Notes: generated by a model from the letters alone, not told the origin. Positions 49,920 through 64,000 are shown, numbered from the stretch's first letter. The stretch is 64,000 bases of DNA from Roseibacillus sp. (GCA_965242925.1 CBDEUM010000014.1:96001-160000), one strand, 5' to 3'. A program made the numbers and translations.

Positions 49920-50049
49920 TCAAACGTATTCCAAGAGTGTTCATGTTATCCGAAAAGAAAAGGAAATACGCGCCCCTGCAGGGGATGAGCCGCTCCTCCC
50001 TCCAATTTAGGATTTGGAGTTTCGCACTCCGCCCCTACGGTCCGCCACC

Positions 50050-51465
50050 TTGGCGTTCAACAGCTACCTCTTCTGGCTCTTCTTCGCGGTGGTCATCGGG
50101 CTCTACCGCCTGTTGCCCCACCGCGGCCAGAATCGCATGTTGCTGGTGGCGAGCTACGTCTTCTATGGTGCCTGGGACGCGCGGTTCCTGCTCCTTATCG
50201 CGATCTCCACCCTGGTCGATTTCCTTGTAGCACAACGCATCACGGCCGCCCCGAACCGCACCCTGGCCAGACGCTGGTGTGCCCTTTCCATCACGGTCAA
50301 TCTGGGAATCCTCGGAGTCTTCAAGTACTTCGACTTCTTTACCACCAGCTTCGCCAGCTTTCTCGAGTCCTTCTTCAACTACCAGACCGACCCGATCACC
50401 CTGAACGTCATCCTTCCGGTCGGCATCTCCTTCTACACCTTCCAGACCCTGAGCTACACCATCGATGTCTACCGCGGTCACACCAGTCCCGCCACCAACC
50501 TGCTCGACTTCGCGCTCTACGTCGCCTTTTTCCCCCAGTTGGTGGCTGGTCCCATCGAACGCTCCCATCGCCTCCTTCCCCAGATTGTCAACCCCCGCAA
50601 ATCGCGGGAGGGGGCCTTCTCCAAAGGGCTCTACCTCATCATCACCGGACTCTTTGCCAAGATCGTCATCGCCGACAACATGGCCTTCATCTGCAACGGC
50701 ATCTTCGCTGCGCCAGTGGGTGAAGCGGGCGGGGTCGATCGCCTGGTTGGAATCTACGCCTTCGCCTTCCAGATCTATGGTGACTTCTACGGTTATTCGT
50801 CCATTGCCCGCGGCATCGCCCTCTGGATGGGAATAGACCTCATGGCCAATTTCCGCATGCCCTACTTCGCCCGGTCCCCGGGCGATTTCTGGCAGCGCTG
50901 GCACATCAGTCTTTCGAGCTGGCTGCGCGACTATCTCTACATTCCGCTTGGCGGCAATCGCGGTGGCCGGTGGCTGACCTACCGCAATCTCATGATCACC
51001 ATGCTGCTGGGTGGCCTCTGGCACGGTGCAGGATGGACCTTCGTGCTGTGGGGCCTCTACCAGGGGCTCCTGCTCTGTATCTACCGTCCCTTTGAAAGCC
51101 GCATCCGTCAATCGGATCCCTCCCTCCTCCGCCGGCTGGTGGAAACCTTCCTCTTCTTCAACCTCATCTGTCTCGGCTGGCTCTTCTTCCGTGCCGAGTC
51201 CATTACTCAAGTCTGGTTCTTTCTCCAGGAGATCCTTTTCACCAACTTCAACGCCACCTTCCTCACCACCTACGGGCTGGGTTCCATCCTCGTCCTCACC
51301 GGTCCCTTCCTGCTCCTCGAAGTATGGCTGTCCCGGCGAGGCGACCTCCTGGCCCTCACCAGAGTGGCATGGGGATGGCGTGCGGCCGCCTACGTCTACG
51401 CCCTCTTCATGCTCCTGATCTACCAACCACATCGAAGCAGTGAATTCATCTACTTCCAGTTCTAA
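50050..51465 (+). CDS. MBOAT family O-acyltransferase (AlgI/PatA/DltB-like)
   Basis: ASYVFYGAWD, FKYFDFF, LPVGISFYTFQ, FFPQLVAGPIER, QIYGDF.GYS, FWQRWHISLSSWLRDYLYIPLGG, GLWHGA, FIYFQF. Probable TTG start at 50050. Confidence 0.93.
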   Translation: MAFNSYLFWLFFAVVIGLYRLLPHRGQNRMLLVASYVFYGAWDARFLLLIAISTLVDFLVAQRITAAPNRTLARRWCALSITVNLGILGVFKYFDFFTTSFASFLESFFNYQTDPITLNVILPVGISFYTFQTLSYTIDVYRGHTSPATNLLDFALYVAFFPQLVAGPIERSHRLLPQIVNPRKSREGAFSKGLYLIITGLFAKIVIADNMAFICNGIFAAPVGEAGGVDRLVGIYAFAFQIYGDFYGYSSIARGIALWMGIDLMANFRMPYFARSPGDFWQRWHISLSSWLRDYLYIPLGGNRGGRWLTYRNLMITMLLGGLWHGAGWTFVLWGLYQGLLLCIYRPFESRIRQSDPSLLRRLVETFLFFNLICLGWLFFRAESITQVWFFLQEILFTNFNATFLTTYGLGSILVLTGPFLLLEVWLSRRGDLLALTRVAWGWRAAAYVYALFMLLIYQPHRSSEFIYFQF

Positions 51466-52423
51466 GAACGCCGAGTGGAAGGTGGTCGCCATCTTCGTCA
51501 CGGCCTTCCTGCTCTTCGAAATCGTGGCGCGCATCCTTGCACCCACACTCGATTACGACCGCGTGCATATCCACGCCCTACCCGGGATCGTGGAAGAGAT
51601 GGGCGACGACAAGAGGCCCCGCGTCGTGCTCCTGGGGAATTCCCTCCTCATGCACGGGGCTGACGGAGAACTCCTTGAGGAGGAAATCTCACGCGCCATC
51701 TCGGGTCCCTGCAGTATCACCAAGATCACCCCGGTGGGCACCGCCATCCGGGACTGGAACTACCTCTACGATACTTACTTCACCGAGAAGAACACCCATC
51801 CCGACGTGGTGGTGGTGGGCTTCGTGGCACACCACATCCCCGACCAGTGCGAACTCAAGATGCGCCGACTGGCGCGCCATTTCTGCTCGCTTAGCAATCT
51901 CTGGGACTGCCTGCAACAGGAAGGCCCAACCTTTGACGATAGGGCAGTCGGCGCGCTCTCCCACTTCTCGGCACTTTACGGCGACCAAGCGGAACACCAC
52001 TGGGGAGCCAGTTCCTTCACCGTTCCGGAATTCGGACGAGGGACAAGAAAGATCAATAACATCCTGGACGGAGAGGCCAGGCGAAAGGCACGGAAGAAAG
52101 CGGAGCCGAATTCCTCTCCTGCCCCGCCGCCCAGAACCTACCAGAAACTCGCCCACCTTATCGAGACCTTCAGGAAGCACGGGGTGAAGGCCTGCTTCGT
52201 CCCCATGCCGCAACCGGAGAGCTGGGAATTCGATCCTGCTGCCACGGAAGTGATTGTCGATAATGGCGCCACCCTGATCGACGGCCGGGCCATCGCCGGC
52301 ATGAAGCAGGCCGACTTCCTGGATGGCTACCATCTCGGGGAAACGGGCACAAAACGCTTCACACACTTTCTAGCGAAGGCCCTGGCGAAGGAACTCTCGG
52401 CCGGAACTGCGCTGTCACCGTGA
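51440..52423 (+). CDS. SGNH-like membrane-anchored partner of the MBOAT (AlgJ/PatB/DltD-like)
   Basis: N-terminal TM helix, LLGNSL, FLDGYHL (DxxH); overlaps the MBOAT 3' end. Confidence 0.7.
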   Translation: MNSSTSSSKNAEWKVVAIFVTAFLLFEIVARILAPTLDYDRVHIHALPGIVEEMGDDKRPRVVLLGNSLLMHGADGELLEEEISRAISGPCSITKITPVGTAIRDWNYLYDTYFTEKNTHPDVVVVGFVAHHIPDQCELKMRRLARHFCSLSNLWDCLQQEGPTFDDRAVGALSHFSALYGDQAEHHWGASSFTVPEFGRGTRKINNILDGEARRKARKKAEPNSSPAPPPRTYQKLAHLIETFRKHGVKACFVPMPQPESWEFDPAATEVIVDNGATLIDGRAIAGMKQADFLDGYHLGETGTKRFTHFLAKALAKELSAGTALSP

Positions 52424-52466
52424 TCCGCCATTGACGCTGCGGGGTCCACCTCCCCATCGTCGTGGC

Positions 52467-54020
52467 ATGCTGGCCTCCGGTCTTCCGCGAACCCTCGTCC
52501 TGCTCTTCAGCCTTTCGATTGTCTCCTCCCTCAACTGCCATGCGGAGCGAGCCCTCTCGGTCGCCGCAGTATTCGGTGATCATGCGGTCCTCCAGCGGGG
52601 CGTGCAGGTCCCCATCTGGGGCACGGCAAATACGGGAAGTCAGATTGAAGTCGACTTTGCGGGCCAGCAGCAAACAGCGGTGGCGGACAAGGGAGGACAT
52701 TGGACGGCCTGGCTGGAAGCAATGAAAGAGAGCGCCAGGGGACGGGATCTGGTGGTTCGTTGCGCAGAGCACTCCCTCACCTTCAAGAACGTGGTGGTGG
52801 GCGAAGTCTGGTTGGCGAGCGGACAATCAAACATGCAGTTCTCCCTCAGGGCCTGCGCCCGCCGACTCAAGAACGTGCAGGTGGCCATGGAGGAACAGAC
52901 CCGTCACAACATCCGCCTGTTGCGCATCGGACCGCCCGACAGCTACCAATTCAGGGAGCTCGACCGCATGAATGTCCGCTGGCAGACCGACTCGCCCACC
53001 ACCCGACCCAACCAGTCCGCTGTGGCCTTCTTTTTCGCGCGGAAGCTGGCCCGGGATCTCGCTGTGCCCATCGGAGTGATCGAGTCCTCGTGGGGGGGAA
53101 AGCCCATTGAGGGATTCATCCCGGAAGAGGAATTCGCAAGCGATGCCGCCTTACGACCGATCGCCGCCCTGGCCCGCGAGAACAGACTGGAAGAACTCAA
53201 GCAACTGAAAGGCGGAGTCATAATCCGCAACACCGCGGGGATGCCCGGGCGCATCTTCAACAGCCGAATTGCTCCGGTCGCGCCCTATGCAGTGGCAGGC
53301 GCCATCTGGTATCAGGGCGAGTCAAACGCCGGAACGGGCGAGGACCCGCGTAACTACCGGATCAAGATGGAGGCCCTTATCAGGGGCTGGCGTAAGACCT
53401 TCAAACAACCACGGATGCCCTTCTACTTCGTCCAACTCCCCGCCTTCCGGGATGAGTCCTTCGGCTGGGTCCGGCTGCGCGAGGAACAGCGCCTCAGCCT
53501 CACCGTTCCGCACACCGGCATGGCGGTGACCATCGACCTTCGCGACACCGACATTCATCCTGCCAACAAGATCGATGTGGGCGAGCGACTGGCCCACTGG
53601 CCGCTGGCCAGACAATATGGGAAGCGGGAGATCGTTCCCGGAGGCCCTCTCTTCAAGTCGGCCCGGATTGACGGCACGACCGTGCGAGTGAGCTTTGACC
53701 ACCTGGGGGGCGGTCTCATGATCGCGCGGAAGGAGGGGTTGACCCCGCCCAGGGAGACGCCCGCCACCGCCCTCGAACACTTCGAAATCGCGGCAGCAGA
53801 CGGCACCTGGCATCCCGCCCAGGCCGAGATCGAGAGTCAGGAAGTGGTGATCCGTGCGAATGCAGTGCCCAAACCGGTGGCAGTTCGTTACGCCTGCCGC
53901 GGAGCGCCGGCAAATCCCAACCTCTACAATCGCGCCGGACTCCCAGCCTCTCCCTTCTGCTCCCGCCTCGAGTTCCTTCCCTGGGCTCCCCCCGGGAAGA
54001 ACTCCAGCCCGGAAAAATAA
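52467..54020 (+). CDS. Sialate O-acetylesterase family protein
   Basis: FGDHAVLQR, VGEVWLASGQSNM, SAVAFFF, SSWGG, IWYQGESN, FVQLP, DIHP.NK.DVGERL, NLYNRAGLPASPF. Confidence 0.9.
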   Translation: MLASGLPRTLVLLFSLSIVSSLNCHAERALSVAAVFGDHAVLQRGVQVPIWGTANTGSQIEVDFAGQQQTAVADKGGHWTAWLEAMKESARGRDLVVRCAEHSLTFKNVVVGEVWLASGQSNMQFSLRACARRLKNVQVAMEEQTRHNIRLLRIGPPDSYQFRELDRMNVRWQTDSPTTRPNQSAVAFFFARKLARDLAVPIGVIESSWGGKPIEGFIPEEEFASDAALRPIAALARENRLEELKQLKGGVIIRNTAGMPGRIFNSRIAPVAPYAVAGAIWYQGESNAGTGEDPRNYRIKMEALIRGWRKTFKQPRMPFYFVQLPAFRDESFGWVRLREEQRLSLTVPHTGMAVTIDLRDTDIHPANKIDVGERLAHWPLARQYGKREIVPGGPLFKSARIDGTTVRVSFDHLGGGLMIARKEGLTPPRETPATALEHFEIAAADGTWHPAQAEIESQEVVIRANAVPKPVAVRYACRGAPANPNLYNRAGLPASPFCSRLEFLPWAPPGKNSSPEK

Positions 54021-54026
54021 TTCATC

Positions 54027-54320
54027 ATGAAAATCGGCCTCCTCGACACCCTGATCTTCATCGCTTTCATCGCACGGGTGATCGCGGTCTCGGTCTACGC
54101 CTCCCGGCGGGAATGAACCGACCAAGACTACTTTCTCTCAGGCCGCAACCTGAAGCGGTGGATCATCGGGATCTCGCTCATCGCGTCCTGCCTTTCCACC
54201 GAACAGCTGGCGGGCATGAACGGGCAGGCCTCTGGCGGGGTGGGCCTGGCAGTCGCCGCGTGGACCTTGCTCGCCCCAGTCACGGTGGGAGTGATCGCAG
54301 TGACAATGGTCTACCGGTAA
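54027..54320 (+). pseudogene. Sodium:solute symporter (SSS) pseudogene, N-terminal fragment
   Basis: MKIGLLDTLIFIAFI...SRRE*TDQDYFLSGRNL..WIIGISLIAS.LSTEQ..GMNGQ...GLAVAAW...*: SSS N-terminal signature with an in-frame TGA (54114) and a stop after 97 codons. Confidence 0.8.
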
Positions 54321-54338
54321 AGCCGGTTCATTCCCCTC

Positions 54339-55784
54339 CTACTGGGCCGTGCCGGGCAGGAAGCGGTAGTAAACTTCCAGCATCAGGGTCGTCAGGCAGG
54401 TCACGTAGTGCACATTACCCAGACCGTGACCTGTGTTGGCGGGAAGAGGCCAGGAACCGTCCTTGTTCTGGGCTGCCAGGGTTGCATCCCGGAAAAGCTC
54501 ATTGTAATCCTTCCAGAACTTGCCGCCGTAGTTGATCATGGCCTGAGACGCATAGTAATGACCGTAGAGGTCGGTGTCCTTGCCCTTCCAGTCGAACTTG
54601 ATGTTCTTGTTGATCACCTTGCAGGCCTTGCGGGGCACGGAGTGGGCTTCCTTGCCCCAGAGCTGGAAACAGAGCGCTCCGGCAGCAGAAAGAGTCGTGC
54701 CGTCACCTCGCGGGTTGGGACCGGTGTAGCCGATCGCTCCACTGGCGTGCTGGTTGCTGGCGAAGGCATCCAGGCCATCCCGTGCACACTTCGCCAAGTT
54801 GCGAAATTCGATCCCGGTATGCTTGCAGGCCTTGAGAGCCTGAAGGCACCATCCCATGACCGAGCTGTCATTACGACGGTCCTCCGTAAAGCGGTAAGTC
54901 CATCCTCCGGCGGCATTCTGACCATCGATAATGGTCTGCCCTCCCAGCTGCACGGCCTCATGGAGACCGGGCAGGTTCACTCCGAGCTGGCTGCAGAAGG
55001 TATAGGCTTCCGCAATGGCGTAGGTTGCGATCGCGTGTTCGTAAACCCACTGATTGGATTGCAGGTCACTTCCCATGCGGCCCTTGTTCTTCGTGCTCTG
55101 GTTCACCAGGTAAGTGATGGCATTGGTCACCGTTTCACCGTACTTTTCGGAGAGTGGGGTTTCGCAGTGCCCGAGATAGGCCAGGAGTGCCAGTCCGGTA
55201 TAAGCGACCTTGTAGCCGCCACCCCATGATCCGTCACCCGCCTGCGTGGTCTGCAACCAGTCGAGGGATTTTACCACCGCAGTCTCACATTCTTCACTTC
55301 CCCCGTTTTCCTTGAGGCGCTGCATGCGGTCCTGAGGCGAACAACGCTTCCGCATCACGGCTGGGATGTTGCCGAAGCCGCCCCCTCCGCCATCTCCACC
55401 GCTTCCCCAGCCCTGGCCGAAGTCATCCCCGCTACCAAAGTCCAGATTTGGTTCTGCTTCGGTTTCCGGAACCGGTACTGCAGTGGGAGAGGGGGTGGTG
55501 GATGCGATCACCTTGGCCATCGAGGAAGAGGGCGCGGACGGCTTGCGCTGTATCTGTGGATTCACCTCCTTCTGATCCATGGTGTCCTCCTCAGGCGCCC
55601 CAGCCTGATAGGTCACGATGGTCGGCGATTTGATAAAGAGATTCGGGAGGAGGATGAACAGAAGAATGAGGACCACGAGAGCGATCACCAGCAAGGCGAT
55701 CACAATGCTGGTGATGACGGAATTTCTCCGCTGCGCTTCGAGGCGGGCCTCTGCTTCAGGACTTAATTGGGCGTGCAGGCTCAT
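54339..55784 (-). CDS. Prenyltransferase/squalene oxidase (QW-like) repeat protein, membrane-anchored
   Basis: Start ATG 55784; TM helix, Pro/Gly-rich linker, LDWL..TQ..DGSW, TGLALLAYLG, YEHAIATYA, Q...GGWTY, Q.KDGSW, LEVYYR. Confidence 0.8.
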   Translation of the reverse strand: MSLHAQLSPEAEARLEAQRRNSVITSIVIALLVIALVVLILLFILLPNLFIKSPTIVTYQAGAPEEDTMDQKEVNPQIQRKPSAPSSSMAKVIASTTPSPTAVPVPETEAEPNLDFGSGDDFGQGWGSGGDGGGGGFGNIPAVMRKRCSPQDRMQRLKENGGSEECETAVVKSLDWLQTTQAGDGSWGGGYKVAYTGLALLAYLGHCETPLSEKYGETVTNAITYLVNQSTKNKGRMGSDLQSNQWVYEHAIATYAIAEAYTFCSQLGVNLPGLHEAVQLGGQTIIDGQNAAGGWTYRFTEDRRNDSSVMGWCLQALKACKHTGIEFRNLAKCARDGLDAFASNQHASGAIGYTGPNPRGDGTTLSAAGALCFQLWGKEAHSVPRKACKVINKNIKFDWKGKDTDLYGHYYASQAMINYGGKFWKDYNELFRDATLAAQNKDGSWPLPANTGHGLGNVHYVTCLTTLMLEVYYRFLPGTAQ

Positions 55785-56115
55785 ACCGGGTCGGATTGAG
55801 GGGATTTTATGGGTTGCTCGAACCCGTTCGAAAAGACAATTCCCTGATAGCTTACCCCTTCTGGATGGAAAATCCGCTCTAAAATCTCTGAAAATAAGGG
55901 AGCCCACCCCGCCAGACCCTACCCCGTTAGGAGGAGAGGACGAGGGAAACCCGGCTCTGCCGTCTTCCACGCAGGCCGCGCCAGCTCCCGGGCCTTCCTA
56001 CGGAATCACCCCTTCCAGGAGGCTTATTGACCTATCTCCGGACCCCACCCTGCCCCGATCACAGATCGGCAGAAGGTGTGTCACCCCGCCTGATCAGAGT
56101 CGCCCCAACCCCGGA

Positions 56116-56937
56116 TCACTCCGCACCAGGTTCCACATTGGGATCATCATCCGGATCGCGGGACCAGACGATGGAGGTGCCCGGTGCCTGGTCCTCCGGA
56201 GTGATGATTTCACCGGAGGCCTTGATCAGCTCGGGAACCCGGCGCACCTCGGTGTGACCGTCCACGAAGAGCAGCACGCCCTTCTGGTTATGGCGGGCGG
56301 CAAAGGCCCGCGGGTTGGCCTTGGGCGAGCCGTTGAACTTCCGCTGGGCCTTCGATTGCTTCTTGTCCTTGGGAAGTCCGCGTTCCAGGAAAATGACCGT
56401 GCTCACCGGTTGCTGAATGGAGGCCAGCGTCCCGGGATCCTTGTAGCCATCCGGCGCACGCCTCTGGAGTCGGCTGTTCATCCCGATCGCAAAGTAGGGA
56501 CGCTCCAGTTTCTTTTCACTCTTGAAGTAGGGAGCCCCTCCCAGGTAGGTCGGATAGCTGCCCTCGTAGAAGGTTCCCGGCGCATTATCCTCCCCCAGCT
56601 GTGCCACCGTCCGGTATCCCATCCGGTCGGGCAGAACATTATACCACGCCTCCTCAGCTTCCTCGCTCGCCGCTACGATCCAGTCCTCGTCGCCACCCGA
56701 AATGTTGGGAATGTCCGCATTCTCCAGAGGAAGACGCCCACCATGATCACTCGTATAATCCACGAAGGCCTGCCCCAGATCCTTGATCTTCTGGGTAGCA
56801 CGCGTGAGGTTTGCACTTTGAACCATGTTGGTGAAACCCTGAAAGGTGATCGACGCCAGGACGATCACGATCGCCACAGCCACGAGCAACTCAAGCAGAG
56901 TAAAGCCTGCCGCCTTTCGAGTGCACCTCCGGTTCAT
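56116..56937 (-). CDS. Prepilin-type N-terminal cleavage/methylation protein with H-X9-DG motif
   Basis: KAAG|FTLLELLVAVAIV; RHNQKGVLLFVDGH near the C-terminus. Confidence 0.88.
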   Translation of the reverse strand: MNRRCTRKAAGFTLLELLVAVAIVIVLASITFQGFTNMVQSANLTRATQKIKDLGQAFVDYTSDHGGRLPLENADIPNISGGDEDWIVAASEEAEEAWYNVLPDRMGYRTVAQLGEDNAPGTFYEGSYPTYLGGAPYFKSEKKLERPYFAIGMNSRLQRRAPDGYKDPGTLASIQQPVSTVIFLERGLPKDKKQSKAQRKFNGSPKANPRAFAARHNQKGVLLFVDGHTEVRRVPELIKASGEIITPEDQAPGTSIVWSRDPDDDPNVEPGAE

Positions 56938-56943
56938 GGGTTT

Positions 56944-57666
56944 CTAGCTGTCAAAGCTCCTCTGGGTCGATGTCAGGATCACGCGATTATTCCCTGAGGC
57001 AACCTGAAGCTTCTCCATAAAATCGGCTATTTTGGCCCCTGATTTCAAGAGAATTCCCCACCGAAGTTCCGTCATCATGCCCGCCTGGATCGATTCCACG
57101 CTGATAAGCTCCGTGGCATCAGCGAATTCCTCGAAAATTGGGCCAAACATCTGATCATACTGAATATCGTTATTCACGCGGATTCTGAGGTTGTGCGAGG
57201 CCCGTTTGGGGGCAAAAGCCTCCTTTTTCGAGAGGATGTAGACGGCAGCCACCATCACGATGGTAGTGGCCACGGCTGTTGGATAGAGGCGCGCGCCCAC
57301 CACCATGCCGGTCATCATGGAAAACAGAATGAAGGCCAGGTCCCGGGCCTGTCCAAGGTTGCGGCGGAACCGGATCATGGCAAAGGCCGCGAACATCCCG
57401 AAGCCGATCGCCGAGGCGTTCGGATGACTGCCGACCACCAGGATGAGAATGGTGGTCACGGTTCCCACGATCACAAGAGTGTGGACATAATCCTGCGAAT
57501 AGCGTGTCCCCCGGTAGGTCGCCTTATAGAGCGTTCCGATAATCAGGTTGAGCCCGAAGCTCACGCCAAGAGCGAAGACCACCTCGACAAACCCGGGGAT
57601 GACAAGATCGAATCCGAGTTTTTCCAGGATGTTTTCATAAACGTCGATAAAGGCCAGGGAGGTCAT
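56944..57666 (-). CDS. DUF4956 membrane protein
   Basis: Multi-TM; YSQDYVHTL, IGFGMFAAFAMIRFRR, ARDLAFILFSM..GM..G, ACT-like C-terminus; directly downstream of the VTC gene. Start ATG 57666. Confidence 0.85.
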   Translation of the reverse strand: MTSLAFIDVYENILEKLGFDLVIPGFVEVVFALGVSFGLNLIIGTLYKATYRGTRYSQDYVHTLVIVGTVTTILILVVGSHPNASAIGFGMFAAFAMIRFRRNLGQARDLAFILFSMMTGMVVGARLYPTAVATTIVMVAAVYILSKKEAFAPKRASHNLRIRVNNDIQYDQMFGPIFEEFADATELISVESIQAGMMTELRWGILLKSGAKIADFMEKLQVASGNNRVILTSTQRSFDS

Positions 57667-57700
57667 GATTTTGGTAGGGATAGTTTTATAAGAAGACGAG

Positions 57701-58471
57701 TCATGCTGCCGACCCCCGCCGTGCCCGCGCCCCTTCAAGCTGGGCACCCAGAACGGGGTCATGTTTTTCAAGGGATGTGCAGTACTTGCTGAAACTCCGC
57801 CGGCTCAACCCGGTCTCCCCGGCCCGCTGCCGCAGCCAGTAGGGAACCGGCCCGATGGACTTGATCTCCATGATGGAGTCTCCCTCGGGAATGATGAACC
57901 TGCTGAAGTTCTGATCGTCCGGGAGGAGCTTGGGGAACTCAGGACGGCAGCGCAGAAGATTGTCGAACGTGATCCGCAGATGACCGTCCGGCGAACTGAA
58001 GGCATCCCGATCATAGCGAATCTGCATGGAGGGCGCATGTCCCGCTGACCGCATCCCGAGGACTTCGTCGATCACGATACGACCAGCGCGGCCCACCTCG
58101 CTGCGGAGCCCGCGCAAAACATCGTCATTCCCAAGGCCGAATTCCTGGGCGGCCTCAATCGACATGGGCAGGCGGCGCTTCACCCCCAGCCCCTGCAACT
58201 TGTGCTTCACTTCAAGGAATCCCGCAGGAGGAATCTTGGCTGTCTCCGAACCATAAATGCGCAGACGGATCTTGCGGCGACTCTTGAAGCGACGCTGCTT
58301 CTCCCAGTAGCAGTCGCGCTCTGCGGTGTCGTAATACTGCGAGAGAATTGGGTAGTTCCCCGAGTTCCCCGGATTTTGGTCCACAGCAAGACGCTGCGAG
58401 ATCTCATCTTTCCATTGATGATACTGCGCCGCGCTGATCAGAAATTTGTATTCGGTCCTGCTTATACTCAC
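57701..58471 (-). CDS. VTC-domain polyphosphate polymerase (CYTH/triphosphate tunnel fold)
   Basis: RTEYKF, SQYYDT, RRKIRLRIY, FLEVKHK, KRR, YDRDAF, RITFD, IMEIK, FSKYC. Confidence 0.88.
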   Translation of the reverse strand: MSISRTEYKFLISAAQYHQWKDEISQRLAVDQNPGNSGNYPILSQYYDTAERDCYWEKQRRFKSRRKIRLRIYGSETAKIPPAGFLEVKHKLQGLGVKRRLPMSIEAAQEFGLGNDDVLRGLRSEVGRAGRIVIDEVLGMRSAGHAPSMQIRYDRDAFSSPDGHLRITFDNLLRCRPEFPKLLPDDQNFSRFIIPEGDSIMEIKSIGPVPYWLRQRAGETGLSRRSFSKYCTSLEKHDPVLGAQLEGARARRGSAA

Positions 58472-58841
58472 TACTGCCCTGAAAGGCAGGGAAAAGGGTT
58501 TACGCTGCTCAAGGAGGATTCGTCACAAATTAAGTTTTAGCCAATAAGAGACAGGACGACAACTCCCGATTCTGCCGCCCATTGATCCGTAAATCCCCTG
58601 AATGAGTCACGGTCACTCCCCTCCCGCCTCTTGCAGCCCGGGCAGAAGCCGGCTTTCAATTATTCGGAATCAACTGAACCTGAAGCAACCTCGTCTGCTT
58701 GTCTGATGGATTCGAACACCTGCTAACCCTTCCGGGGGGCCTTCCGGACGCTCGCTCAGGCCTATCACCTTGTGCCTCTCTCAGAACATTTTATGCTCAA
58801 TCTACCACCCCCTCCTTCTGCAACGCATTCCCTCACAGCCC

Positions 58842-61800
58842 ATGTCCTCCCCCTTCCGTGCATGCTGGTTCCTTCCGGGCCTCCTCCTGCTGACTGCCTC
58901 CCCCTCCCTTCCAGCTGCCGACATCATCTGGATCACCGAAAACACGGACCAGAACAATCCCCCGTCACCCGACGACTCCGGTTGGACGGATCTGCTCACC
59001 AGTGCAGGCCACACCGTCAACCGGTTGACGGTGACCAGCCTCGACTCCGATCCCGACAGCCTCGACCGGATGAACGCTAGCGACCTCGTGATCGTCAGCC
59101 GGGATACGAACAGCGGCACCTATGCCAGCAACACCTCCGAGGTCACCGCGTGGAATGATATAGCCACACCCCTGATCCAGATGAGTGCCTACCTTGTGCG
59201 CTCCAACCGCTGGAAGTGGCTCAACAACACCGGCACTCCGATCGCCTCCGGTCCGGATCTCCAGATCCGGGATCCTGCTCATCCGATCTTCGCAGGGATC
59301 ACCCCGGACGACCGCAACCAGTTCGTTCTGCTCACGAACGGAACCGTGAATGTCACTAACCAGTCGAACGCCGGGAACGGAACGGTCCTTGCCACCGACC
59401 CGGGAACCGGAAATCTCTGGATCGCATTCTGGGAACCTGCCACGGAATTCTATGCCGGATCAGGTCAAACGCCAGCAGCTCCGCGGCTCTGGTTTGCCGG
59501 AGGGGAGAGCGCCAACAACCCCAAGGGTGGCGAGAACTTCTCCTCCGCGGGCGAAACGGTTTTCCTGAACGCCGTCAACTGGATGGCCGACGTAACTGTC
59601 GATCCGCCCACCGTGATTAACGGTAGCGGCCAGGAGATCTCCACCAGAACCGCCACTGTGACGGGAGAAGTGACTGACACCGGGGGCGCCCCTCCCAATG
59701 TGACGGTTTACTACGGCAACAACAACGGAGGCACCGATCCGGACGCCTGGAATGCCGGTATCGAAGCTGGCGTCCAGGCGGGAATCTTCTCCACCGCCCT
59801 GACCGGACTCACCCCGGGCACCACCTACTACTACCGCTCCTTTGCAAGCAATTCCGGCGGAGACGACTGGGCCGATTCAAGCACCTCATTTACCACCCTC
59901 ACCCCGCCCACCCCCCCGACGGTGGTCAACTCCCCCGCCAGCAATGTGGGCTTCGCCTCCGCCGAGATCGGCGGGCAGGTCACCGCCACTGGCGGAGAAA
60001 ACCCCACCGTGCTCATCTACTGGGGCGACAACAACGGCGGCACCACCCCGGAATCGTGGGACCAGTTCAACGACCTCTCCACTCAGGATGGGGCCTTCGT
60101 GGACGCCCTTGCCAACCTCACCGACGGGGTCACCTACTACTTCCGCTGCTTCGCCTCCAACTCGGGTGGCTCCGCCTGGGCGGCTTCCACCGGGAGCTTC
60201 ACCACCCTGACCTTCGGTCTCGCCTCCCTCACCAACTCCGCCGCGACCAACGTCGCGGGCGTCTCAGCGCAAATCAATGGCACCGTCACCGCCACCGGTG
60301 GTGACAGCCCGGTGGTCGAGATCCACTACGGCACCACCAACGGAGGCACGAACCCGGGATCCTGGGACTCCTCCGTGACCATCGGCACCCAGTCGGGCTC
60401 CTTTTCCACCGCGCTCAACTCCCTCGCCGCCAGCACCACCTACTTCTTCACCGCTTCAGGAACCAACATCGCCGGACAAGGGTGGGCCACACCCTCGCTC
60501 AGCTTCACCACCCCTGAGATCTCCGACCTCGTCATCAACGAATTCATGGCATCCAACGGGGGCGGCACTCCGGCTCCGAACCAGGTGCCCGGCGCCACTG
60601 AGGACTGGATCGAGATTCACAACCGGGGTAACACCACCGTCAGCCTCGCCGGCTGGCACCTTACCGACAGCGCAGGGAACCTGAACAAGTGGACCTTTCC
60701 CCCGGGAATCACCCTAGCGATGGGCGATTTCCTGGTGGTCTTCGCCTCCGGCAACAACGCGCCGGACGCCAATGGCAACCTGCACACCAACTTCAGTTTG
60801 AGCGCAGGCGGCGAGTACGTCGCGCTGGTCCGCCCCTCGCTCACCGTGGCCAGCGAGTTCGGACCCAGCGCCATGAACTACCCCTCGCAGCAATCCGACA
60901 TCTCCTACGGACTCCATCCCAGCACCCTGGAGTCGGTCTACTTCCAGACCCCCACCCCCGACGCTCCCAACGATGCCGGCGGACAACTGCTGGTCGAGGA
61001 CACCCAGTTCAGCCACAAGCGCGGCTACTACACCTCGGCCATCAACCTCTCCCTCACCACCAACACCCCCGGTGCCACGATCCGCTACACCCTGGATGGG
61101 ACCGTGCCCACCCAATCCACCAACGGCAGCACCTACTCCAGAGCGATCCCGATCAACACCACCACCGTGCTGCGCGTGCGGGCCTTCAAGAGAGGCCTGC
61201 AGGAGACCAAGGTGGACACCCAGAGCTACATCTTTCCAAGCTCAGTGGGCACCCAAACCCGGCCTTCCGGTTACCCGACGAGGTGGGGAAGTGAGCCCAC
61301 CGCCGACTACAACGTGGACATTCAGATCACCCAGTCGCGCCAGTACCGTGCCCGCTTCCTGGAAGGGCTGCGGGACATTCCCACTCTCTCGGTCACCGGC
61401 GAGGAGGACGACTTCTTTGGTTCGAACGGGATCTACGTCGACACCCAGGACCGCAATATCGAAGCCGCCGTCTCCGCCGAATACTTCCATCCCGGCCCCG
61501 TGACCGACGGCGTCAACATCGAGAACGGGTTCCAGATCGACTGCGGATGCAAGCTGCAGGGCGGTGCCAGCCGCACTCCGAGCAAGGCGATCAAGCACTC
61601 CTTCAGCCTGCGCTTCCGCGACCTCTACGGGGCCGGGAAACTCAACTACCCGGTCTTCGATGGGACCACTGTCACTACTTTCGACAGCATCCACCTGCGA
61701 GCCATGTACAACAACTCGTGGATCCACAGCAACAGCGGCCAGCGCGCCCGTGCCACCATGATCCGCGACCAGTGGGCACGTGACTGCATGATCGACATGG

Positions 61801-64000
61801 GCAATGCCGACGGTGGGCAGGGGCACTTCGTGCACTTCTACATCAACGGCATCTACTGGGGCGTCTTCAACCTCCACGAGCGCCTCGAAAACGACCACTA
61901 CGCAGCCTACAACAACTATGAAGACGACGAAGTGCTCGGGCTGAATCCGGGCAGAATCACCTCGGAGGAGAACAGTTCCTTCAATGCCATGAAAGCGGTC
62001 GTCACGAATTCTCGCAGCCCCTGGTCCCGGATCCAGACCGTCCTCGACGTCGACAATTACATCGACTTCGTCATCACCGAGTACTTTGGCCGCAACGCCG
62101 ATTTGAAATCCAACGACAACTGGCGCGCGGCGGGCGGAGGCAGCGCCAACGCCCCCTGGCGCTTCTACTGCTGGGACACCGAGAGAATCCTTGAGGACCA
62201 TACCTCCACCAGCGCCCCCAGCAACAGCGGATCCCTCGACGGAGCCCTTATCTTCGATAATCTCGAGGACCACCGCGAGTTCCGGGTCCGCTTCGCCGAT
62301 CGTGCCTACAAGCACCTCTTCCATGGCGGAGCCCTCACCAACCTTGAGAACCGCGGCCGCTTTCAGAATTACGCCGACCAGATCGACACCGCGATCGTGT
62401 GCGAGTCCGCCCGCTGGGGCGACGACCGGAGCGGAGGGGGATTCAGTGCCAACTACGCACGCAACGAAAACTGGACTCGTGCAGTGTACGGAACTCCAGG
62501 CGGACCGGGCACGAGCCCGAGCAACGGCGTGCTGGGCTCCTGGTTCCCGACTTCAGGAACCAACCGTACCGACCGCATGATCAGCGCCTGGCAATCGAAA
62601 AGATTTTCGGGCAGCTCCGACACCTACCTCGGGACCATCACGGCACCTCTCTTCACCGTCAACGGGGGGAACCAGCACGGCGGTGAAATCCCCGGCGCCG
62701 GAACGCTCTCCGCCACCGCGCCCTCCGGATCGATCTACTACACCACCGATGGGACTGATCCGCGCCTCGAAGGCGGCAGTCTCGCGCCCGGGGCGATCCT
62801 CCTCTCCGGCGGGATGACCTTGCCCGCCAGTGGACTGGTCCGCATGAGGGCCCGGGTGGGCCGCGCCGATTCGTGGTCACCGCTGAGCGAGGCCATCTTC
62901 TATCTCGAACGCCGCGCCACCGCCTCCGATCTGCGCATCACCGAGATCAATTACAATGCAGCCCGCGCCAACGCAGTGGAAGCCGAAGCCGGGGCGAATC
63001 TGGCGACTCCCCGCCTCTTCACCGGTGGGGATTTCGAGTTCATCGAGATCTGCAATGTCAGCACCACTGCCGTCAACCTTGATGGGGTGAAGTTCACAAA
63101 CGGGCTCACCTTCACCTTCCCCGTCACCAACCTTCCCGCGGGTGGATACGTGGTGGTGGTCGAAGACCTGGAAGCATTTGAAGTGCGCTACGGCAAGGAC
63201 CCCACGGTGGCAGGACAGTTTGCCGGCACCCTCGAAAACGATGGCGAACGCATTGCCTTCGCGATCTGGAACGGCACCGGTGGCCAGGACTTCACCTTCG
63301 ACGACGGAGGAACCTGGCCGGGACGAGCCGACGGATTCGGATCCTCACTTGAAATCATCGACACTGCCGGCGACTACGGAAACTCGGAGAACTGGCGTTC
63401 CAGTTGCCAATACAATGGCTCACCGGGTGCTCTCGGAGCCGGCCTCGACGGTCGCATCGTAGTCAACGAGGTCCTCACTAACACCAATCTCCCCGCCGTC
63501 GATCGCATCGAACTTCACAACACCACCGGGGCCTCGATCCCGGTGGCCAATTGGTACCTCTCCGATGCCAATACCAACTACCGGAAGTTCCGTATTTCCT
63601 CCGGCAGCATTCCCGCCGGGGGCTACCTGGATTGGGACGAGAGCGACTTCAATGCCAACCAGAATATCGCCCTTTCTTCCTATTCCGGCACCATTGCGGC
63701 CACTCCCACCACGGTCTCCGATGCCGCACACGGCCTGTCGACGGGAGACGTCATCACGATCTCGGGATACGGCGGAATAGGGGGCTACAACAACACTTTC
63801 GAGGTAACGGTCCTCAATGCCGACAGCTTCACCATTCCGGTTCCCTTCCTTGACAATCACAGCACCAAGGGAACTTACACCAGCGGCGAACCCTTCGCGC
63901 TTTCCTCGCAGGGTGATGACCTCTGGTTGCTCGAGGCGGACGGCGCGGGCAAGTTGCTCAAGTTTGTTGACGCCGTCGAATTCGCGGCTGCCCGCAGCAG
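58842..64000 (+). CDS. Large secreted CotH-family kinase with 3 FN3-like repeats, lamin-tail domains and CHB_HEX_C-like domains; 3' end runs off the window (>1700 aa)
   Basis: Manual translation from ATG 58842 (signal MSSPFRACWFLPGLLLLTASPSLPA); same frame at the window end. TYYYRSFASN repeats, LVINEFMASN..EDWIEIHN, IRYTLDG, QGGASR..KHSFSLRFR, IRDQW, YINGIYWGVFNLHER, WRFYCWDTE. Confidence 0.88.
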   Translation, partial: MSSPFRACWFLPGLLLLTASPSLPAADIIWITENTDQNNPPSPDDSGWTDLLTSAGHTVNRLTVTSLDSDPDSLDRMNASDLVIVSRDTNSGTYASNTSEVTAWNDIATPLIQMSAYLVRSNRWKWLNNTGTPIASGPDLQIRDPAHPIFAGITPDDRNQFVLLTNGTVNVTNQSNAGNGTVLATDPGTGNLWIAFWEPATEFYAGSGQTPAAPRLWFAGGESANNPKGGENFSSAGETVFLNAVNWMADVTVDPPTVINGSGQEISTRTATVTGEVTDTGGAPPNVTVYYGNNNGGTDPDAWNAGIEAGVQAGIFSTALTGLTPGTTYYYRSFASNSGGDDWADSSTSFTTLTPPTPPTVVNSPASNVGFASAEIGGQVTATGGENPTVLIYWGDNNGGTTPESWDQFNDLSTQDGAFVDALANLTDGVTYYFRCFASNSGGSAWAASTGSFTTLTFGLASLTNSAATNVAGVSAQINGTVTATGGDSPVVEIHYGTTNGGTNPGSWDSSVTIGTQSGSFSTALNSLAASTTYFFTASGTNIAGQGWATPSLSFTTPEISDLVINEFMASNGGGTPAPNQVPGATEDWIEIHNRGNTTVSLAGWHLTDSAGNLNKWTFPPGITLAMGDFLVVFASGNNAPDANGNLHTNFSLSAGGEYVALVRPSLTVASEFGPSAMNYPSQQSDISYGLHPSTLESVYFQTPTPDAPNDAGGQLLVEDTQFSHKRGYYTSAINLSLTTNTPGATIRYTLDGTVPTQSTNGSTYSRAIPINTTTVLRVRAFKRGLQETKVDTQSYIFPSSVGTQTRPSGYPTRWGSEPTADYNVDIQITQSRQYRARFLEGLRDIPTLSVTGEEDDFFGSNGIYVDTQDRNIEAAVSAEYFHPGPVTDGVNIENGFQIDCGCKLQGGASRTPSKAIKHSFSLRFRDLYGAGKLNYPVFDGTTVTTFDSIHLRAMYNNSWIHSNSGQRARATMIRDQWARDCMIDMGNADGGQGHFVHFYINGIYWGVFNLHERLENDHYAAYNNYEDDEVLGLNPGRITSEENSSFNAMKAVVTNSRSPWSRIQTVLDVDNYIDFVITEYFGRNADLKSNDNWRAAGGGSANAPWRFYCWDTERILEDHTSTSAPSNSGSLDGALIFDNLEDHREFRVRFADRAYKHLFHGGALTNLENRGRFQNYADQIDTAIVCESARWGDDRSGGGFSANYARNENWTRAVYGTPGGPGTSPSNGVLGSWFPTSGTNRTDRMISAWQSKRFSGSSDTYLGTITAPLFTVNGGNQHGGEIPGAGTLSATAPSGSIYYTTDGTDPRLEGGSLAPGAILLSGGMTLPASGLVRMRARVGRADSWSPLSEAIFYLERRATASDLRITEINYNAARANAVEAEAGANLATPRLFTGGDFEFIEICNVSTTAVNLDGVKFTNGLTFTFPVTNLPAGGYVVVVEDLEAFEVRYGKDPTVAGQFAGTLENDGERIAFAIWNGTGGQDFTFDDGGTWPGRADGFGSSLEIIDTAGDYGNSENWRSSCQYNGSPGALGAGLDGRIVVNEVLTNTNLPAVDRIELHNTTGASIPVANWYLSDANTNYRKFRISSGSIPAGGYLDWDESDFNANQNIALSSYSGTIAATPTTVSDAAHGLSTGDVITISGYGGIGGYNNTFEVTVLNADSFTIPVPFLDNHSTKGTYTSGEPFALSSQGDDLWLLEADGAGKLLKFVDAVEFAAARS
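59605..60514 (+). repeat. Three diverged ~100-aa FN3-like coding repeats
   Basis: Each has G.VT.TGG..P.V..Y(Y/W)G..NGGT.P..W...F...L..L...TYY(Y/F)...SFTT; boundaries approximate. Confidence 0.8.

Follow-up and report, generated by a model that had tools for sequence, protein, structure and literature searches.

In yeast, Vtc4 polymerises polyphosphate (polyP) from ATP and threads it through a membrane channel. CotH proteins are atypical kinases related to the Fam20C kinases of the secretory pathway, and the periplasm and the cell exterior generally lack ATP. Genes encoding CotH, a polyphosphate polymerase and a DUF4956 membrane protein are known from Gram-positive pel operons, where they have been described as accessory (10.1101/768473). 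The same three folds have been assigned to SIR_1592-1594 of S. intermedius, where polyP was suggested to stay in the cytoplasm, and that preprint did not find the triad outside pel operons (10.1101/2024.04.20.589940). A locus encoding members of the three families lies at positions 56116 to 64000 of a 64,000-nucleotide stretch of DNA from Roseibacillus sp. (GCA_965242925.1 CBDEUM010000014.1:96001-160000), hereafter the window. The triad is real and non-random, and it is already in print; what the comparative analysis of this locus adds is a 1:42 ratio of the VTC-DUF4956 pair to CotH genes, a one-way dependence in which VTC implies CotH, and an exchangeable gene slot downstream of DUF4956.

The VTC gene (57701-58471, minus strand; 256 amino acids (aa), GTG start; Pfam PF09359, E 1.6e-36) is followed after 34 bp by the DUF4956 gene (56944-57666, minus strand; 240 aa from an ATG at 57666; Pfam PF16316, E 1.7e-15) and, 6 bp further, by a prepilin-type gene (56116-56937, minus strand; 273 aa; Pfam N_methyl, E 2.4e-6; TIGR02532 above cut-off). 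Across a divergent intergenic region of 370 bp (58472-58841) lies a CotH gene on the plus strand, which starts at an ATG at 58842, occupies the window up to its end at 64000 and, in the genome, extends as a full open reading frame (ORF) of 2051 aa to window coordinate 64997. ORF calls and Pfam searches hence agree with a preliminary description of the window in the order, spacing and divergent orientation of these genes, and the length given there for CotH, in excess of 1700 aa, was borne out.

Like the pel accessory set, this locus combines a secreted CotH protein with FN3-like modules, a cytoplasmic VTC-like protein with conserved catalytic residues and an MgtC-like membrane protein with an ACT domain. 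It differs in belonging to a double-membraned marine verrucomicrobium, in its divergently oriented CotH gene, one of 42 and 2051 aa in product length, in the prepilin gene that follows, and in not being co-oriented or contiguous with pelDEAFG. No pel-like gene was present among the flanking proteins encoded at 50014-56937 (MBOAT, unannotated, SASA, cyclase-like and prepilin), the search for pel genes being confined to these flanks. VTC-domain and CotH genes have also been mentioned together at a locus of C. perfringens (PMC11677781), and DUF4956 is merely listed in expression tables (PMC10434189, PMC13454231). Neither of the two pel preprints proposes a role in export or as a donor supply (10.1101/768473, 10.1101/2024.04.20.589940). 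No proposal of polyP export or of a polyP-using CotH was found in the literature searched, the coverage of which is incomplete.

A Vtc4-like enzyme and its DUF4956 partner

The VTC protein is a stand-alone triphosphate tunnel enzyme, with a single match in the genome. According to Pfam and to the predicted model, it carries the VTC domain only, with no SPX domain and no fused membrane domain. A single-sequence search of the PDB returned nothing meaningful and a profile was needed, the VTC family profile matching yeast Vtc4 (3G3Q, E 3e-16). The predicted model (pLDDT 95.6) found its best fold matches in Vtc4, Vtc3 and Vtc2 (E 1e-14 to 8e-12), with hydrolases and cyclases at 1.8e-7 or weaker. 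In the profile alignment, along which positions were counted by hand using the numbering of 8I6V chain E, R5, K9, R69, R71, K89 and K98 correspond to Vtc4 R196, K200, R264, R266, K281 and K294, and R100, Y153, R155, E202, K204 and K229 to R296, Y359, R361, E426, K428 and K458. Each of the twelve positions is conserved in no fewer than 122 of 129 distant VTC representatives, and R69, R71, E202 and K229 in at least 126 each. K9 and K89 align with Vtc4 K200 and K281, which we take to have catalytic roles. Catalytic roles of Vtc4 R264, R266, E426 and K458 are documented (PMC9911596, PMC4641920).

Hydrolases of the triphosphate tunnel (TTM) fold are told apart by an acidic patch of four glutamates (PMC4641920). 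Three of the four patch positions are basic in the VTC protein (R5, R100 and K204) and the fourth is occupied by the invariant glutamate E7, a correspondence drawn from the motif and not from superposition. What the protein has in common with the acidic-patch hydrolases and cyclases (AtTTM3, YgiF, class IV adenylate cyclase; PMC4641920) is the tunnel fold, the ExExK residues E7 and K9, and E202 as first metal ligand; it differs from them in these basic patch positions and in their fold scores, some seven orders weaker than those of Vtc4. The view of VTC as a Vtc4-like enzyme, put forward in the preliminary description, was upheld by the conserved catalytic residues and by the closest fold, and polymerase activity is the best reading of the active site, with a hybrid activity possible. 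The genome also encodes PPK1, so that cytoplasmic storage would need no second polymerase.

A weak search for fused VTC forms yielded 1 hit in 2548 candidates, lacking a membrane part, and no VTC-DUF4956 fusion. A 481-aa protein (P0001) was observed to contain a complete VTC domain after a basic 228-residue N-terminal region without Pfam match.

DUF4956 is present in a single copy in the genome. The protein comprises five predicted membrane helices (residues 26-147) and a C-terminal ACT-like domain (154-239). Conserved basic residues (K48, R52, R55, R99, R101, R102 and R108) are located at helix ends on the predicted cytoplasmic side, with R99 and R101, after the third helix, being invariant. 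Basic residues also line the cytoplasmic entrance of the yeast VTC channel (PMC9911596), and the arrangement in DUF4956 is hence compatible with a channel, if no proof of one. The closest described layout is that of MgtC/SapB, which likewise joins an N-terminal membrane domain to a C-terminal ACT domain. The ACT domain matched 7QA5 (Z 8.4, rmsd 3.5, 89 aligned) and 2LQJ (Z 8.0, rmsd 2.9, 86 aligned), both tied with many other ACT folds. Unlike MgtC/SapB, DUF4956 is strictly paired with a VTC enzyme, and its membrane domain had no MgtC match at Pfam E<=0.01, where only DUF4956 itself was recovered. Neither a PDB profile search nor Foldseek (E<=0.001) produced a match, and a search of the Atlas returned DUF4956 clusters only; a wider fold search was filled by ACT domains, including the C-terminal domains of MgtC proteins, and barely probed the membrane part.

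The comparative analysis encompassed 121 genomes of the organism's own family, 251 genomes from across the phylum (Verrucomicrobiota) and 14 control genomes, with other phyla covered by six plasmid-collection records, the same control genomes and published work. Two rows below cut-off and with internal stops were dropped before counting (DUF4956 in G052 and CotH in G177). VTC followed by DUF4956 was found in 77 of 80 related loci, and the remaining three stop at a contig edge. DUF4956 was present in 54/55 VTC genomes of the family and in 36/36 of the phylum sample, and it stood directly after VTC in all six Bacillota/Actinomycetota records. The pairing reported in the preliminary description is thus near-invariant. 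In one genome (G025), a second copy of DUF4956 was observed directly after a 1082-aa secreted lamin-tail protein without CotH match (L161:7776-11725).

A structural model of the complex, built with one VTC and three DUF4956 copies (a number dictated by the size limit), scored 0.42 (runs 0.42, 0.00 and 0.50), against 0.00 for the best control. In the calibration of this score, 116 of 157 solved complexes attained the mark, as did 2 of 215 mismatches; at 0.60 or below, only 18 of the 157 solved complexes and both mismatches did so. The runs agree in at least 0% of contacts, the partners have a pLDDT of at least 71 and no interface is given. The multimer prediction that had been proposed as a check is a weak indication that VTC binds DUF4956.

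Taken together, the pair shares with the yeast VTC complex (Vtc4/Vtc3/Vtc1; 3G3Q, 7YTJ, 8I6V; PMC9911596) the tunnel fold, the Vtc4 catalytic residues and an obligate small membrane partner with conserved basic residues at its predicted cytoplasmic face. It differs in the absence of SPX and fused membrane domains, in a partner unlike Vtc1/DUF202 and in the presence of E7 for T198. The module would work like VTC in its enzyme, yet it is no member of the VTC complex by architecture.

The CotH family and its co-occurrence with the pair

The CotH protein encoded next to VTC presents a signal-like N-terminus, FN3-like repeats, a lamin-tail domain (LTD), a CHB_HEX_C/Fn3_assoc module, the CotH kinase domain (61587-62435, plus strand; Pfam E 3.3e-17), further LTDs and a C-terminal domain shared with other proteins of the genome. 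Among the modules named in the preliminary description, lamin-tail and CHB_HEX_C domains were recovered by Pfam (three LTD and two CHB_HEX_C_1/Fn3_assoc matches), while fn3 fell below its cut-off. The genome (4.58 Mb, 89.9% complete) contains 42 CotH ORFs (44 matches; for example on C14, C34 and C12). Signal peptides were judged by eye and with a crude hydrophobicity heuristic in place of a dedicated predictor; 33 of the 42 ORFs passed the heuristic, and several of those failing it look truncated. The C-terminal domain is shared by 38 of the 42 and ends 57 ORFs in the genome, a partly circular count, given that the profile was built from CotH ends. This domain is a candidate surface-sorting signal. 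It was observed to end in an F/Y-x-R-L-like strand.

A single-sequence PDB search with the CotH domain returned no match and a profile was again needed, the only PDB match of the family profile being the CotH of B. cereus (5JD9, E 1e-34). The catalytic residues of CotH are equivalent to PKA D166, N171 and D184 (PMC12189002). Using residue positions from that review together with our own alignment, and assuming a one-residue offset for 5JD9, D1087, W1111 and D1112 align to catalytic and adenine-binding positions of the B. cereus protein. D1087 and D1112 represent the catalytic aspartates, and the asparagine column falls on D1092 or N1093 depending on the alignment. The two aspartate columns are kept in 35/40 and 39/40 aligned paralogues of the genome. 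Of the adenine sandwich, W1111 is present and the Y142 column falls in an alignment gap; a polyP-type change at this site was sought, and the idea gained nothing. The protein therefore shares with B. cereus CotH (5JD9/5JDA; PMC12189002) both catalytic aspartates and W245, and differs from it in being an exported giant multidomain protein encoded in a genome with 42 copies.

The distribution of the three families was examined across genomes. In the family sample, VTC was present in 55 genomes, DUF4956 in 58 and CotH in 61; VTC and CotH occurred together in 53, VTC without CotH in 2, CotH without VTC in 8 and neither in 58. CotH was hence found in 53/55 genomes with VTC, as opposed to 8/66 without it. 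In the phylum sample the corresponding figures were 36/36 and 17/215, and all 36 VTC genomes hold both DUF4956 and CotH. Since the association holds without exception in one direction (36/36) and 17 genomes hold CotH alone, VTC implies CotH and CotH does not imply VTC. VTC and CotH were also concordant in 60 of 66 genomes belonging to six mixed genera, kin that are not independent of each other. Among the control genomes, three hold all three families, and B. subtilis, the CotH of which works in the spore coat, holds CotH only. In one of the two family genomes with VTC and no CotH (L068, G113:C9), the DUF4956 match contains a stop and a split porin lies nearby, an arrangement possibly reflecting decay after CotH loss or an assembly error.

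The physical linkage of these genes varies. In the other families of the phylum, whose genomes hold few CotH genes, 21 of 39 loci have CotH close to VTC, and in 13 loci (L212-L224) VTC, DUF4956 and CotH form one operon. Of 37 loci picked by hand in the organism's own family, 9 have a CotH gene no more than ~9 kb from VTC; a scan of the collection gave 14 of 80 loci, many on short contigs. In genus g8, seven loci have no CotH within ~9 kb, though their genomes hold 4-11 CotH genes, and gene linkage alone does not therefore explain the co-occurrence. VTC is single-copy in all 55 VTC genomes of the family, while CotH candidates number from 1 to 58. With 42 CotH ORFs in the genome, a CotH neighbour at a single locus is weak evidence, and the presence of one pair for so many CotH genes suggests a shared utility instead of a private partner. 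The non-random co-occurrence anticipated in the preliminary description is accordingly observed between genomes, within genera and where the genes are unlinked, and the proposed link to CotH stands for the family of 42 genes and not for the one adjoining gene.

The downstream gene slot and the surroundings of the locus

The gene following DUF4956 changes between lineages. Among 38 loci from other families of the phylum, 18 have an HlyD-type adaptor in this slot, 12 of them together with an OEP/TolC gene on the same stretch, 13 have CotH and 3 have Porin_O_P. In the family, porin and prepilin genes account for 14 of 38 loci each and CotH for one, with housekeeping genes or contig ends in the remainder; in locus L053, CotH, VTC, DUF4956 and porin stand in one row. 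Because HlyD/TolC or porin genes fill this slot, it points to a product that would cross the envelope, and the theme of envelope export in the preliminary description is supported in many relatives by such conduit genes. Four of the six Gram-positive records have CotH in the vicinity of VTC, and in two of these four the genes are surrounded by glycosyltransferases. In the other two, the place of CotH after the pair is taken by a gene for a Cthe_2159 carbohydrate-binding lipoprotein (Paenibacillus) or by a PLD/cardiolipin-synthase-like gene (Acetoanaerobium). An OmpR-type response regulator and a histidine kinase were observed flanking the pair in three of the six records (L185, L186 and L187).

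The prepilin gene occupies the slot in 27 of 77 related loci, including records labelled Chthoniobacter and Prosthecobacter, and the arrangement occurs in many Verrucomicrobiae. Its product contains a class III signal (G|FTLLE) and a C-terminal H-X9-DG-like motif. Two prepilin paralogues (57% and 39% identical) are encoded away from VTC and DUF4956, at C28:17130-17945 and C14:294081-294998. An apparent DUF4956-prepilin fusion in L079 was ruled out, as it stems from an ambiguous base at the stop codon.

Directly after the prepilin gene, a membrane-anchored protein with a weak squalene-cyclase/prenyltransferase-like domain is encoded at 54339-55970 (minus strand), in the same order as in L079. 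Further along, an MBOAT acyltransferase, an unannotated 327-aa protein and a SASA esterase (50014-54020, plus strand) form a set that looks like surface-polysaccharide O-acetylation genes. The nearest named relatives of the organism carry the labels Akkermansiaceae or Roseibacillus. No sigma-70-like promoter was found in the 370-bp divergent region, where a promoter and terminator scan performed at chance level. Assembled contigs from four RNA runs overlap parts of the prepilin, DUF4956, VTC and CotH genes, one spanning the prepilin-DUF4956 junction and another that of DUF4956 and VTC; contigs of this kind cannot show transcription, strand or level.

A putative polyP export module and its alternatives

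The results are consistent with VTC-DUF4956 being a membrane-coupled module for polyP synthesis and export that serves exported CotH enzymes, a reading to which we assign a probability of roughly 0.4. From the genes, residues, folds, co-occurrence and neighbourhoods described above, and from the weakly modelled binding of VTC to DUF4956, we infer polymerase activity, transport and its direction, the use of polyP by CotH and the acceptor. VTC and DUF4956 would constitute one inner-membrane machine, in which cytoplasmic VTC, like yeast Vtc4, would polymerise the gamma-phosphate of ATP into polyP and would dock on a DUF4956 oligomer through which the chain would leave the cytoplasm. Its onward path in relatives would be an HlyD/TolC duct or a protein of the phosphate-porin family. 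The polymer would supply the exported CotH-fold enzymes of the cell as a group (42 here, against a single VTC-DUF4956 pair). In the simplest case it would act as phosphoryl donor in an ATP-poor setting, and the phosphate would be passed to surface proteins or glycans. In short, the pair is likely to carry activated phosphate out of the cytoplasm, and it might fuel phosphorylation at the cell surface. The complete scheme, with a single machine whose membrane subunit is unrelated to Vtc1, threading polyP out as donor for the whole CotH family via interchangeable outer-membrane outlets, is offered tentatively and is somewhat unlikely to hold in all its parts.

Several observations weigh against this reading. 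The strongest result against an obligatory donor supply is the existence of genomes with CotH and without the pair: 17 in the phylum sample, with one or two CotH matches each, and five in the family, one genome being a single contig. Sensitive VTC and DUF4956 profiles found nothing in five CotH-only genomes, a positive control being available for the VTC profile only. The proteins encoded on twenty stretches taken from CotH-only genomes are for the most part large and begin with a signal-like N-terminus, and 21/21 CotH domains from VTC-less genomes retain the two aspartates, which ruled out that these are dead kinases. Given the occurrence of such intact, signal-bearing proteins, exported CotH is not strictly dependent on the pair; these genes may be relics or users of another donor. 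In VTC-adjacent CotH domains, the first catalytic aspartate aligns with N or S in 6 of 20 cases, and the tryptophan of the adenine sandwich (W245) is kept as W1111, as expected for an ATP user. In VTC, E7 is present in 123 of 129 representatives where Vtc4 has T198, and constitutes half of the hydrolase ExExK motif. The preliminary description had proposed VTC and DUF4956 as a split synthase/translocase, to be checked for a cationic pore; DUF4956 has no Pfam or PDB-profile match to Vtc1/DUF202, its layout is MgtC-like, no basic residue lies inside its predicted membrane helices and a cationic pore could not be made out. In addition, one of the three complex runs scored 0.00, genome size confounds the co-occurrence in genera g5 and g16 (though not in g13), and S. 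intermedius mutants deleted for the three genes showed no loss of Pel production (10.1101/2024.04.20.589940). As regards the outlets, an orthologue of the HlyD-type adaptor is missing from the genome (the best match, at E 7e-8, compares with <=1e-61 for genuine members), and the porin homologue is encoded away from the locus. The Porin_O_P family is present in 108 of 121 family genomes, which rules out that the porin tracks VTC across genomes.

A rival reading has polyP made and exported as a surface polyanion, involved in cation binding or in attachment to, or assembly of, envelope glycans, with CotH in the same envelope pathway and using ATP, or binding or processing the polymer instead of taking it as donor. 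The replacement of CotH after the pair by a Cthe_2159 lipoprotein or a PLD-type gene, the location of the triad in glycosyltransferase loci and after pel operons, the missing first aspartate in adjacent CotH domains and the occurrence of CotH without the pair all fit such a role, which we consider unlikely, though by no means far-fetched, given that none of the 36 VTC genomes of the phylum sample lacks CotH, that one of the two family genomes doing so has a stop inside its DUF4956 match, and that most paralogues in the genome keep both aspartates. Slightly less probable again is that DUF4956 is the real kinase partner, as an ATP/ADP exporter or exchanger or as an MgtC-like sensor, with VTC as an accessory nucleotide-binding or triphosphatase subunit. 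Its MgtC-like layout with an ACT domain, E7 in VTC and W245 in CotH would agree with this, and so would a second type of DUF4956, also at odds with a polyP module, found directly after CotH in G011 (L064:9197-11450) and G014 (L065:7810-10003), and between a metallophosphoesterase and a 698-aa lipoprotein in G094 (L067:7416-13021) and G102 (L152:5543-10712); no VTC was found in G011, G014 or G094. The G094/G102 set contains a PepSY-like/DUF4956 fusion, and its lipoprotein has a kinase-like D-x-K-x-x-N motif and no Pfam family, its nearest named Atlas families (Fam20C 0.85, HipA kinases 0.84) being leads only; the three genes could possibly encode an exported kinase-phosphatase set. Such neighbours in the absence of VTC speak for DUF4956 as the constant companion of exported kinases. 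Few genomes, however, have DUF4956 and no VTC (4/58 family genomes, one at a contig end, and 1/37 in the phylum sample), five small helices would be few for an ATP carrier, and the polymerase-type basic positions and K458 equivalent kept in VTC would be needless in a passive subunit.

It is improbable that the three proteins have unrelated functions, with VTC as a cytoplasmic polyP or regulatory enzyme, DUF4956 as an MgtC-like stress protein and the CotH neighbour a product of chance. The 42 CotH ORFs in 4.58 Mb, the low frequency of CotH near VTC in family and related loci (9/37 and 14/80, many on short contigs) and the suggestion that polyP may stay in the cytoplasm (10.1101/2024.04.20.589940) are in line with such independence; they are set against the concordance within genera (60/66), the 13 VTC-DUF4956-CotH operons, the nearby CotH in four of six Gram-positive records, the envelope conduits in the slot and the presence of PPK1. 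Least probable of all is an inward direction, in which pyro- or polyphosphate would enter via the porin and DUF4956 and be hydrolysed, or used to make ATP, by the VTC-like enzyme. OprO and OprP are uptake porins, Porin_O_P stands directly after DUF4956 in 14/38 family and 3/38 phylum loci, and E7 would suit a hydrolase. A PDB search with the porin profile came back empty, though, OprO/OprP included, so that its selectivity is only presumed, and the same slot holds, in 18/38 phylum loci, HlyD/TolC-type genes, the ducts of which export. Furthermore, no Pst, PhoU or phosphatase gene was recognised around ten porin loci (ORF starts read by eye), and uptake leaves the link to CotH without explanation.

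How a kinase might work in the ATP-poor space beyond the bacterial cytoplasm is a standing question, and no tested function of bacterial VTC-domain proteins was found in the papers searched. All three parts of the putative polyP export module are, as domains, small enough for direct assay. If the proposal is correct, it would define a third bacterial polyP route, coupled to export, together with a kinase-fold enzyme using polyP, and it would explain how some marine Verrucomicrobia carry dozens of giant exported CotH proteins.

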